The notes beneath the pieces were generated by a model. The model did not search any database, had not been told where the DNA came from, and worked only from the letters and a program-made list of their open reading frames with translations. Positions 20,533 through 60,945 of a stretch of DNA of 64,000 bases are shown one piece after another; position 1 is the stretch's first letter; every line of letters begins with the position of its first letter. The translations under genes were made by a program, and so were the position numbers. Source of the stretch: Anolis carolinensis (lineage: Eukaryota); NCBI RefSeq assembly GCF_035594765.1, contig NC_085844.1, positions 10,183,923 through 10,247,922 of the forward strand, given 5' to 3'.

Positions 20533-21480
20533 TCACAATTGGGTTTGGACTGAGGTTTTCATTTCTTCCGTATCATTTTCATTCTCTGTGAAAAGTCTGG
20601 CTAGTATTTTCTTTACTTTCTCCCCAGATCGGTCCCTCTTCTCTTTCCCAATCAAAAAATAGATGAGGGGGTTAACAGTACTGTTTATATAGGCACCAAG
20701 GAAAGCATATTCATAGTAATAGGGATCATTTAAAAGAGGGACATCATCTGAGAAGTATTGAATAGCATTCATTGGAAACGTAAAGAAGAGGAAGAAGAGA
20801 AGGGTGAGCAAGATGACTGTTAGAAGCTTCCCCCGCTTGTATTGAGGGGATATTATGCAGATTTTAATTAGTAGCGCTACAGTGCAGATGGTCATAAGTG
20901 ATGTGCAAACCACTGTATTCAGGAAGAATAGATAGTACGAGAGGTTATCATTTTGAATGATTATTGGAAGGACTATATCGCTAAACAAAAAAAGAAAGTT
21001 GAAAATCCATATTACAGCACACAGAGTGGGGGACAGATATGGTGGTCGGTGGCATCGATGCCAAAATGGAAAGAAGACACAAACACACCTGTCAATGCTG
21101 ATGAGCGACAGTAGACACTGACTAGTGCTGAACATGAATCGAAAGAGAGTGTTAAAGAATATTATTGAGAAGTGATGCATGTCTACATAGGTGAGTAATT
21201 GTGCAAGCCAAATTGTATTTATAGCAACAATAGCTGTGACCACACCAAAATCAGCTATGGCTAGGTTCAAGACATAGGTAGTGAAAGGATTTCTCTTAAT
21301 GCAGAAGCCAAGAAGCCAGAAGACAACCCCGTTCCCTACAAATCCCAAAAGGCTGGTAGAAAGAGCCATGATGGTTGTCAGAAATATCACTACACTTGGT
21401 AACACTGCCTCTTTTTCTGTTCCATTATACCACATTTCAGGATTGGGCAGAGTCCTCAGGGACAGGTTGGAATCAGCCAT
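20533..21480 (-). CDS. Mas-related GPCR, type A, 315 aa, intact
   Basis: 7TM; GFVGNG, YVLNLAIAD, SIDRCVCVFFPFWHRCHRP, INSTVNPLIYFLIG; polypyrimidine tract plus acceptor CAG at 21525-21526. Confidence 0.93.
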   Translation of the reverse strand: MADSNLSLRTLPNPEMWYNGTEKEAVLPSVVIFLTTIMALSTSLLGFVGNGVVFWLLGFCIKRNPFTTYVLNLAIADFGVVTAIVAINTIWLAQLLTYVDMHHFSIIFFNTLFRFMFSTSQCLLSLISIDRCVCVFFPFWHRCHRPPYLSPTLCAVIWIFNFLFLFSDIVLPIIIQNDNLSYYLFFLNTVVCTSLMTICTVALLIKICIISPQYKRGKLLTVILLTLLFFLFFTFPMNAIQYFSDDVPLLNDPYYYEYAFLGAYINSTVNPLIYFLIGKEKRDRSGEKVKKILARLFTENENDTEEMKTSVQTQL

Positions 21481-22997
21481 TGTGTTCCGTTCCTGCTTTG
21501 GTGCGTCTTCTTTTGATGCAGTTCCTGATAGAAAAAAGAAAACAGATAATGCTATGAAGACTAATCATGATCAGTAGGGGTGTGCAATTTGAGAAAACCC
21601 TATGCAGTTTTCAGTACCCAGTTTTTGACACCCTCCCATTCCATTTTTAGGGAACGTCCTGAATTCGGAAGGGCTTTCTGTATTCATGCCAAAAAAATTT
21701 GGTCCATTGACACCTATGGGGAAAATTTAGAGGCTTGTTTCTTTGTCATTTTAGGCATATCAGTAGGAAACCTGCCTCACTTGTTGGCCACATGCAAGCT
21801 GGCCAAGTTTCAGAATGTTTCACCAATCTACTGATTTTTGGGAAATTTTAATATTTTTTACCATAACATTTTTTAAAAAAAAGACTCACAAGAGGAGATT
21901 CTGCAAATAGAAGTCCCAAGCGCACACCACAACGGGGAAGGAAAATGAACACAGTCAACCGGGCCTCTTACTGGCTGAGAAAGAAAGTGAGAAACACATA
22001 GAGATAAAAATTAAAAACTTCATGCCCCGAGAAGGAACACAGTCTCCTTCAATGCCCGCATCACACAAAGTGCTGCTGGGAAATAGAGTTCCCATTTATT
22101 TGCCTCAAGCAGACACAAGGGTGGGGAAGTGTCTTCAGGAAAAGATGAAGGAGCCTGCCAGGGAAGAAAACATTGGAGGAGCATGATTTGCAAGGCCACA
22201 GGCCACCTCCACCTCAGGTAGAGTGCTGCTCGGCCCCATTAGCCCCCATTAGCCAAAAAGATCTGGCTACTCTGATTCCTTTTGGCCAAAGCTTTGGCTG
22301 TTTCCCACCAGTCTTGCTTTCATGCATTCAGCAGATGAATTTCCTGAATGCCAGAATCTGGGTCACCAAAAGGATATTTTGTACACCCCTGGTGATCAGT
22401 GCTGCTTCACCTTTTAAGCAAGCCTTGACGGGCAAAATAAAAAGATCAATTTGAATTCAAAGTAGAATGTATTTCTTCTGACAAGTGTCATTTGTTCATA
22501 TTTAAATCTCTTTTGTTTTATTTCCATATCAATGCGGGGCATTTTAAAGAGTTGGCCAGCTTTTGATATCTCCAGACTTCATTGTCAAATAAGATGTTTT
22601 TTACCATAACATTTTTTAAAAGTACACACAATAACAAACTTATTTTAAAATCATGCTGTAAAGTATCTTGAATGCCTATATGAATTTTTAACATGTCTGC
22701 ACCTCAACTTTAATTTCTAATATGATCACTTCAAGATCTTTGTATAGGAAGAAAGATGAGAAAGAATCGACCACTTTTGAGGAATTGTTAATGATGATAA
22801 CAAAGCAGAGACAACTTTTTTTTGCTTTGGGGCCGTATTGTGTGGCTGGTGAGGAGGGCCAGGCCAGGAGGAAGGGAGGTTGGGCACATGCTGGGGGGAT
22901 GGACCTGGGAGGAAGAGGGCCTGAGAGAGGGAGGGGCCAGAAGGGTGTGGGGCAGGGCCCAGGTCATCCTCAGGGTCTTCTCCTGGCATTATTCCTT

Positions 22998-23500
22998 CAT
23001 TTATTTATTTATTACAATATTTATATCGCACCCTTCTCACCCAACAGGGGACTCAGGGCGGCTTAAGATAAAACACATATATAAAATTGTACAATACACT
23101 ATAAATCAGTTAAAAATTATTAACTTACACCGGACATTCATAAAACACATTATAAAATACAGATGGGCGTGTTCAAGTTTAAAAGACTGGGTCTGTCAAT
23201 TGAGTTCCAGCGTACATAATAATAATTAGCGCTGCTAATTGTTATTCGAAAGCCTGGCCCCACAACCAAGTTTTAACTTTCCTACGGAAAGATAGGAGGG
23301 GGGGAGCCTGCCTGACTTCACTGGGCAGGGCGTTCCATAGGCGGGGAGCCACTACTGAAAAGGCCCTGTCTCTCGTCCCCGCCAGACGCACCTGTGAGGC
23401 TGATGGGACCGCGAGCAGGGCCTCAACTGATGATCTTAAGCTTCTAGGTGGGTCGTAGTGGGAGACACGTTCGGACAGATAAGCTGTGCCGGAACCGTTG
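22998..23500 (-). mobile_element. L2 LINE 3' fragment (present only in unit 1)
   Basis: (TTTA)n tail, GGGGACTCAGGGCGGCT motif, AAGGCCCTGTCTCTCGTCCCC RT C-terminal remnant. Confidence 0.75.
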
Positions 23501-58876: not shown

Positions 58877-60510
58877 GTAGTATTTTCTACTCACCTCTCC
58901 TCATGACTTGAGATGGGCTACAAATAATTAAAAGACATAAACACAGCAAAAACACTATAAATATATACACAAAAATGTACCTCTATAAAAATTACCTACC
59001 AAAACGTATCTCTAATGAAATACATATGAAACAGATAAAGAGAGATTAAACAAAGGACAAATGAACACCAAAACACACACACACACACAAAGACAAGGGC
59101 TGCAGTCTGCTCATGAGGATCTTCAAAGGCAGCAATAGAGTGATGGCTGGAGATGTTCTGGCCTCTTTTGCAGCAGCCACAGCAAAGTCCTTAGATCTTG
59201 TGGCCCTGTTGACGTTGGAGGGATGGGCTCCCGACAGGTGGTGCAGGAGACACGACGCTGCTGTATTCCACTTTATGGCCTCAGACCATGGCCATAAACC
59301 CATGTTTGCATTAATTGCTGGGTGTCATTTTGACAGAAGTGTTTTGGTGGCATGATCTTCATCTGAATCCAATCTCCCAGATCATATAAATGGAATATGG
59401 AAGAAAAATATTTTGCTGTATTTGCTATTTTTGCTGTTGTTTCTGTGAGCTTACAATTTGTTTCCATCTAGGGGAGACCTATCGACAAACCTACCATGGG
59501 ATGTTCTGCGGCTGAGATCATGTGACTTGCCCAAGATGACCCAATGAGTTTCCATGGTTAACAGGAAAATCAAACCTTGGTCTCTAGAGATTTGTGACCT
59601 CATCGCACTTTGTAAAACCAGCATCATATCATACTGCCATCCAAGTTCACTTATGGAGCCCAGACCACCCATCAGAAGATGCACATTGACTTCTGACAGG
59701 GCTTCATGAGTGAACTGAGGCAGTAGAGTTATACGATGCTGCCCTGCCATCATAGGAGCTTCCCTGTGTTCCAGAAGGAACAACAGGGCTATCTTGGATG
59801 CAAACCGGGATGCAATGCTTCCTCTTGGTGTGATGGGGAAGCGTCAGCTGTTGGTCGGATAGAGTTCTGGGTGCTGGGATTGATCCACAGCCCCAATGAT
59901 TCACCACGGAGGCTGGTGAATCACAACACTGGACCTCACCCACACGACGAGGTCCATATTTCAACACTCAAATAATTGTGCCACATTGACGTTTAAAACA
60001 TCTTGATTTTATTTCCATGCTCTTATCTATGGTATCTCTACTGACTTTGGTAATGTAGTTAAATAAATTCGATCCTCTTCTTTCCCCACCAGCTTTCATC
60101 ATTCATCATGCCATACTTGTGATACTTAAATAGGTTCAAGCTCATACAGTGTCATTTTAAGTAGGATCAGGAAAGAAAGCAATAGAACAGGTTTGCTTTC
60201 CATTTACAGCTTATTCATATCTTGATATTTAATATTTGCAATTAAATTCTAAATGTTATATATTCTAAAATTATAGAAACAGAGAGGAGATTAAAATGTT
60301 GTTGTTCCATTCCAAAAGAAGCAACAAAAGAAGGTCGTTTCATGTATAGGCATAAATATCTATGAATCAGCAGGAATATATAGCATACATACTAAGTATC
60401 TCTTTAGACCAGGCATGGGAAAACTTTAGCCCTCCAGGAGTTTTGGACTCCAACACCAACAATTTCTAACAGCTGGTTGGCTGTTACAAATTGTGGAAGT
60501 TGAAGTCCAA

Positions 60511-60945
60511 TAATAAATAATAATAAAACTTTATTTATATAGCGCCCTATCTCCCGGATGGGACTCAGGGCGGTTTACAGTCATAAAAGCAACACAAACA
60601 TTACATAACAACATAATACATATTATTATACAAAGTAAAATAATGCAATTATAACAATAAATCACACTTACATGACCAGATCAAGGGACGGGAACCATAA
60701 ACCCAATATATTAAAATGTATCATTTTAGGCTAGGGAAATCTTGTGCAATATATTCAGGCCCAGAAATCGGTGGTTGTCCAATGTAATTACTCTAAGATC
60801 TGCCAACACCATCAGGTCTTCAGTTCCTTACGGAAATTGGATAATGTAGGGGATCGCCTGATCTCTTTTGGCAATGCATTCCAGAGCCGGGGGGGGGGGG
60901 CACTGCCGTGAAGGCTCGTTCCCTCATCCCCACCAGCCGCACTTG
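60511..60945 (-). mobile_element. 3' end of L2 (copy of 32899-33334), interrupted by Gypsy
   Basis: Matches unit 1 up to CCGCACTTG, then switches to the LTR. Confidence 0.88.

Follow-up and report, generated by a model that had tools for sequence, protein, structure and literature searches.

Chimeric receptor genes at the seams of a four-unit tandem duplication in an Anolis carolinensis MRGPR-like cluster

How can a receptor gene cluster come to be duplicated in units whose ends lie inside its own coding sequences? We addressed this question in Anolis carolinensis, in a stretch of 64,000 nt (the window; locus G000:C4:10183923-10247922, genome 1.85 Gb) that holds a tandem array of Mas/MRGPR-like receptor genes of two types, A and B. 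With flanks of 60 kb added on the left and 140 kb on the right, the region examined spans 264 kb; positions follow the window's numbering, and those above 64000 continue its count rightward. The answer that we favor, with a probability of roughly 80%, is a tandem duplication of four units whose three seams are one frameshifted hybrid of A and a second B-type gene, B', made once through a short, nearly identical stretch of the two genes and then multiplied by unequal crossover between whole units. The junction sequence, its 52-nt loss and frameshift, the four units and their pairing, and the states of the genes are established parts of this account.

Units and seams of the array

Self-BLAST showed colinear blocks that begin at 21065, 35804 and 49264, each at an identical AATG, just as an earlier note made from the letters alone had described. 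Base-level alignment likewise confirmed its account of the internal junctions, in which the 5' half of the type-A gene runs into the 3' half of a B-type gene, 52 nt net being lost at an AATG microhomology. Two of its claims had to be given up: position 60945, taken as the right end of a unit, is the insertion site of a long terminal repeat (LTR) retrotransposon, where 5 nt of target sequence are duplicated (60941-60945 and 73702-73706), and unit 3 resumes beyond it, at 73707; and the units number four rather than three, with a third chimera at 75939. The third seam and the fourth unit lie beyond the window (Table 1). The units stand head to tail, are longer than 1 kb and more than 90% identical, and thus constitute a segmental duplication; the 264 kb showed no further direct duplication of the sort (matches of at least 400 nt and at least 82%). 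The receptors of the array comprise one intact A gene, three intact B genes (B1, B3 and B4), the frameshifted B2, the broken B5 and three dead chimeras.

The seams are alike in structure. On the gene strand, the sequence at both in-window junctions is that of A as far as TTTCCATT and B-type from CATT onward, 52 nt further along, so that the A 5' half and the B' 3' half share a 4-nt CATT/AATG overlap and the reading frame is shifted. The missing 52 nt cover LWHRCHRP..ALCV and encode loop 2 together with the initial half of transmembrane segment 4 (TM4). All three chimeras have this register, and alignment shows that they also have derived changes of the A half in common. In chimera X2, one base beside the overlap differs from chimeras X1 and X3 and there matches A for two bases longer; the exact breakpoint is therefore uncertain by about 2 nt, while the 52-nt register is unchanged. 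Chimeras X1 and X3 differ at 2 sites over 35306-35830, and chimeras X1 and X2 at 22 over 648 nt. The open B' frames of chimeras X1 and X2 have 7 non-synonymous and 4 synonymous differences, which are uninformative on constraint. Unspliced, chimeras X2 and X3 translate to 145 residues ending in SGSSAS, stopping after TM3, and in chimera X1 a 274-nt deletion at 36063/36064 has removed the start codon. We predict that the hybrids do not function.

A RefSeq protein, XP_062835396.1 (P0001, 276 residues), bridges chimera X2 by a 38-nt GT..AG gap across junction 2 (49229-49266 region). We rejected rescue by splicing: the product would be without the Arg of the DRC motif, loop 2 and half of TM4. A gap of 38 nt is below the usual size of vertebrate introns, and because of this and the loss of these parts, the entry is likely a frameshift-bridging prediction, probably an annotation artefact and a false protein-coding call.

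Table 1. Features of the array and its surroundings (window numbering; aa, amino acids)
Feature	Position	Strand	Description
Gene C	9594-10598		Intact Mas-like receptor, 334 codons; outside the duplicated block
Gene A1	20533..21480	-	Sole intact type-A Mas/MRGPR-like receptor, 315 aa; open reading frame, Pfam 7tm_1, 87% orthologue in a related anole
Best A/B homology window	21045..21104	-	90% over 60 nt; contains the A breakpoint 21065-21068
Unit 1	21065..35803		14,739 nt; self-BLAST and extended alignment
Gene B1	26338..27309	-	Intact, 323 aa; open reading frame, Pfam, structure match, alignment
Chimera X1	35351..36063	-	B' 3' half (35351-35807) and A 5' part
Junction 1	35804..35807		4-nt overlap
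Unit 2	35804..49263		13,460 nt; 3-kb insertion of a long interspersed nuclear element (LINE), 3-kb deletion at ~48315
Gene B2	39831..40779	-	Frame broken where a T run near 40197 is one T too long
Non-LTR retrotransposon	42368..45378	+	Unit 2 only, absent from unit 4; 795-aa reverse transcriptase frame 42664-45051
Chimera X2	48811..49679	-	A 5' half complete and in frame; open for 145 aa, then a stop
Junction 2	49264..49267		4-nt overlap
Unit 3	49264..75938		In-window part 49264..64000; 13.9 kb once the LTR insertion is removed
Gene B3	53962..54927	-	Intact, 321 aa, B1-like
LTR retrotransposon insertion	60946-73701	+	In-window part 60946..64000; nested, 12.8 kb, within unit 3
Chimera X3	junction 75939		Beyond the window; start of unit 4
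Unit 4	75939-83752		Entirely beyond the window; cut short by a deletion running into B5
Gene B4			Intact; in unit 4, to the right of the third chimera, beyond the window
Gene B5	83752-84455		Fifth B gene, broken; beyond the window; unit 4 deletion runs into it

Origin of the first seam

To identify the parents of the seam gene, we built separate trees for its two halves (24 and 23 rows, squamate sequences only; the related-anole proteins P0017 and P0124, in which the split motif was unmatched, were excluded). The chimera 5' halves group with A1 (97/88), while the 3' halves form a B lineage of their own (96/91) beside B1/B3 and B2/B4. Trees and alignment together indicate that two paralogues contributed half of the seam gene each; of the two, the A parent is still present. 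When the genome was searched for the B' 3' end, 3 of 14 matches reached 97-100% identity, all of them chimeras, the next best being 82%, and no intact B' gene came to light elsewhere. Since the B' 3' end is confined to the three chimeras, the donor has been lost as a whole gene.

What brought two such different genes together? Over aligned columns, A and B share 58-61% identity. When 60-nt windows were ranked by identity to three B genes, the best was the one that contains the A breakpoint, and for all three B genes this breakpoint lies between the two longest perfect runs, of 22 nt (21083-21104) and 17 nt (21047-21063). An overlap of 4 nt or more occurs in 2.2% of 200,000 random pairs of A and B positions, which places the join in the microhomology class, presuming that B' had the CATT present in 5/5 B genes. 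By rough arithmetic, and for a case selected for its chimeric look, fewer than 1% of random second breakpoints in a 15-kb span would come within 52 nt of register. Because the breakpoint lies in the top A/B window, between the longest perfect runs and near register, short homology likely guided the formation of the seam. Classical non-allelic homologous recombination involves in-register exchange inside a near-perfect match of hundreds of nucleotides. The first seam does not have this form: A and B match perfectly over no more than 22 nt, and the two sides of the join are 52 nt out of register. The later exchanges between units do have long homology. A transposon-mediated seam was considered as well and rejected, the join sitting in coding sequence.

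In the history that we favor, the ancestral order in gene direction would have been B' - B - A. B' would have paired with the 5' half of A at the codons of DRC and the second intracellular loop, and the join would have closed 52 nt out of register at the CATT overlap, by a microhomology-type repair that duplicated everything between. There is a lesser but appreciable chance that this seam took two steps: an in-register crossover within the 17-nt match, giving an intact A/B' hybrid, and a later 52-nt microhomology deletion that killed the hybrid before re-amplification. The 17-nt run lies wholly within the lost 52 nt, and one out-of-register event and a crossover followed by deletion therefore leave identical sequence; small-overlap deletions are also at home here, four others at the locus terminating in overlaps of 1-3 nt. 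The two-step course fits the present sequence equally well and, as a variant of the favored history, is compatible with all its later steps. It requires two events, with the loss found in 3/3 copies, and among the 20 longer matches to the B' half there is no in-frame hybrid protein, and no intact B', apart from the gapped P0001, which is weak evidence of absence.

A more distant possibility is that some other route first duplicated a bigger block with B', B and A in it, and that a later deletion from the middle of A to the middle of B' erased the original seam. This course would yield the present-day order, and a deletion ending inside a B gene is known at this locus, where unit 4 runs into B5. 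We nevertheless consider it improbable, as it requires an additional event and as translated searches of the 264 kb show one full A gene and three 5' halves, with no second A 3' half.

Probable re-amplification and the reality of the array

The relationships among the units bear on how the first seam was multiplied. From ~25.9 kb onward, 123 of 124 informative sites that divide the units two against two group units 1 and 3 against units 2 and 4, while left of ~24.1 kb many sites separate unit 1 from the three chimera-led units. Divergence from 25.8 kb on is 0-1.2% between units 1 and 3 and 0-2.8% between units 2 and 4, compared with about 1-7% (13% in one bin) between units 1 and 2; counted from ~25.9 kb, the latter two ranges are 0.5-2.8% and about 2-7%. 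This pairing suggests that the last amplification step likely copied a two-unit block. All chimeras are likely of single origin and later re-amplified, because they have their register and their A-half changes in common. In the simplest history, the array would have had two units once the seam had formed, reached three by an unequal crossover, and grown to four by another crossover with a two-unit shift, deletions and insertions falling between these steps; the units would then have become mosaics through transposon insertions, gene conversion and small deletions at microhomologies.

These results modify the scheme of the earlier note, which had one out-of-register crossover followed by re-amplification. 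Its single origin and its guidance by homology stand, and its single step is indistinguishable from a crossover followed by a 52-nt deletion. Its rule that each round adds one type-B receptor and one dead chimera is too simple, since the last round likely added two units. Its statement that only one subfamily expands is true as a count, but it follows from geometry: B is the sole whole gene inside the unit.

Further evidence came from seven public sequencing runs, available as contigs only, in which the junction-crossing pieces derive from 5 coded studies. (Runs and chimeras are both labeled with X and are always named as such.) Contigs cross the seam without mismatch in five of the seven, namely runs X6 (35778-36063), X14 (35783-36063), X4 and X16 (both 35778-35851) and X17 (35778-35824), though below our strict criterion of 31 letters on each side. 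The seam is very likely real and a misassembly unlikely. The bases private to chimera X2 recur in two of the four runs compared (runs X1 and X14). Contigs of intact-A or B1 type are missing in some runs, but contigs show presence, not absence; depths and pieces vary between runs, and no copy-number count follows from them. Runs presumed to be RNA look like DNA, and nothing on expression follows from them. In the junction contig of run X14, the 130 letters leftward from 35783 (21 nt left of the junction) are unlike the window, possibly a further rearranged chimera allele.

Could units 3 and 4 instead be a second haplotype of units 1 and 2, set in tandem by the assembly? The differences between units 1 and 3 and between units 2 and 4 are at allele-like levels, 2 sites distinguish chimeras X1 and X3, and contig depths in runs X1 and X2 are nearer one or two chimeras. 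We judge this partial artefact quite unlikely. The 22 differences of chimera X2 from chimera X1, and its recurrence in other runs, indicate that at least two chimera types are real, and the depth of junction contigs relative to intact-A contigs is 98.2 : 31.2 in run X4 and 16.3 : 5.32 in run X16, or ~3 : 1, a hint only, as contig depth is not copy number.

Several observations weigh against the favored history of one seam multiplied by crossover. No contig covers the junction with 31 letters to each side, the best having 26 B-only, 4 shared and at least 44 A-only letters; the contigs probably stop short where the intact B genes branch off. Runs X1 and X2 have no crossing piece among the pieces listed (2/7 runs), one run may be the assembly's own source, and the placement of four units on one chromosome comes from the assembly alone, the runs offering contigs and no long reads. 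The fate of B' is a further difficulty. B5, which forms a separate 5' lineage in the tree and whose upstream DNA matches unit 1 for ~0.7 kb only, is on position likely the 5' remnant of B', but its last 198 nt differ at 9-10 sites from the chimeras and at 3 from B2/B4, so that its identity with B' would need gene conversion. Finally, B1 and B4 contain two patches of ~30% synonymous difference, far above the unit flanks, where a clean single duplication predicts otherwise.

These patches are sharply localized. Between B1 and B4, synonymous differences amount to 8/23 sites in the N-terminus and 5.5/19 around loop 1, compared with merely 4-7% in TM1-2, DRC-TM4 and TM5-6. The same contrast holds between B1/B3 and B2/B4, with ~30% in the N-terminus and first extracellular loop and 2-7% in cores and flanks; the old patches thus sit in the ligand-facing loops of the B copies. 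Old, divergent patches in otherwise young units suggest that older paralogues donated sequence by gene conversion or that two old alleles were captured. From loop 3 to TM7, B1 and B4 have 12.2/62 non-synonymous and 0.8/13 synonymous differences, counts too small to call selection. A bolder reading, doubtful though worth stating, is that the duplication placed two long-diverged versions of receptor B side by side (old alleles, or loops imported by conversion), and that the module, variable in copy number, stacks different ligand-binding forms of a single receptor of sensory or mast-cell type in wild lizards. Recombination at the most conserved motif of genes only 60% alike would have been its seed. 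In the contigs, B1/B3-type bases occur in one of four runs and B2/B4-type bases in the other three, a pattern that contig simplification could explain.

The frameshift in B2 may be a real change or a homopolymer error. The UniRef protein P0002 keeps B2-type sequence in frame, headed by a B5 N-terminus; the frameshift may therefore be private if it is not an error. Among the matches from a related anole are a single orthologue of A (87%) and six or more B-like proteins. In the 3' tree these B-like proteins lie outside the clade of B1-B4 and B' (99/95) and form their own group (84/86), and B therefore expanded there separately. No A/B hybrid protein of that species appeared among the database matches, in which pseudogenes would be invisible.

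Known systems and the surrounding locus

Literature searches, with most subscription papers outside their coverage, returned no title describing this array. For the mouse, Zylka et al. in 2003 are said to have described MrgA/MrgC cassettes expanded by unequal crossover near L1 elements; the same receptor family is repeated in cassettes there, with homology supplied by retrotransposons, while the lizard seam lies in coding sequence. The pattern itself is already known from human gene clusters, to which the lizard array adds another case. The relevant passages on human FCGR2/3 (PMC6786274) describe an unequal crossover of FCGR2A with FCGR2B that duplicated the intervening block and left the hybrid FCGR2C, a pseudogene in most people, with later unequal crossovers altering the number of whole modules. 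As far as these passages go, the two systems are alike in having a hybrid seam gene made from flanking paralogues and in copying by modules. They differ in that FCGR2C is an in-register, exon-level fusion between 82-kb repeats and can be expressed, whereas the lizard partners are single-coding-exon genes ~60% identical, joined 52 nt out of register in a 14-kb unit. In FCGR2C both parents flank the array; here A is present, and B5 is in the expected place but truncated, and nearer B2/B4 over 198 nt.

The portion of the literature on human RCCX that we drew on (PMC3595039) presents tandem modules with whole genes inside and the partial genes STK19P and TNXA at the boundary, mono- and trimodular forms arising by unequal crossover, and modules marked by gene conversion and retroelement insertion. 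On that description RCCX resembles the lizard array in its partial boundary genes, its unequal crossover and its conversion, but its boundary consists of fragments of unrelated genes, while the lizard seam joins two paralogues of one family. For sauropsid MAS/MRGPR genes, an available passage (PMC6504862) reports a large, locally duplicated group with kinship to mammalian MRGPR, together with a reptile gene cluster; local duplication is common to both accounts, and that passage contains no breakpoints, unit structure or chimeras.

Knowledge of duplication mechanisms is unchanged by the lizard array. What it offers is a base-resolved case of the growth of a receptor cluster, in which a duplication likely began at a 60-nt motif conserved between distant paralogues and then provided long homology for repeated unequal crossover. 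The junction and the unit-specific insertions can serve as markers of copy number in wild populations, and one database protein is flagged as probably false.

The array belongs to a Mas/MRGPR-like receptor cluster of several dozen genes across ~0.4 Mb around the window. Pfam 7tm_1 scored above cut-off in 4/4 receptors scanned, all on the minus strand, and the top 17 of 25 PDB matches of B1 are Mas or MRGPR chains. The 7tm_1 domain and the best solved-structure matches, to MAS1 and MRGPRs, assign the genes to the MAS/MRGPR group of class A G protein-coupled receptors; database names of related proteins are inconsistent (Mas-like, H-like, A2-like). Elsewhere in the cluster, another receptor gene is present in an older inverted duplication (84%) at 117999-119520 and 125001-126523.

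The locus also carries transposable elements of different ages. The LTR retrotransposon of unit 3 encloses a second element, whose 973-nt LTRs are identical and which has a 5-nt target duplication of its own; both elements are very young, and a related LTR (83%) is found ~6-7 kb left of the window. The non-LTR retrotransposon of unit 2 has an older relative (74-78%) in the opposite direction at 33231-35185. Between gene C and A1, at 15301-17783 on the minus strand, lies a LINE that we take from its look to be L1-like, with a 503-residue reverse transcriptase frame (Pfam RVT_1) and a strong A/G skew.

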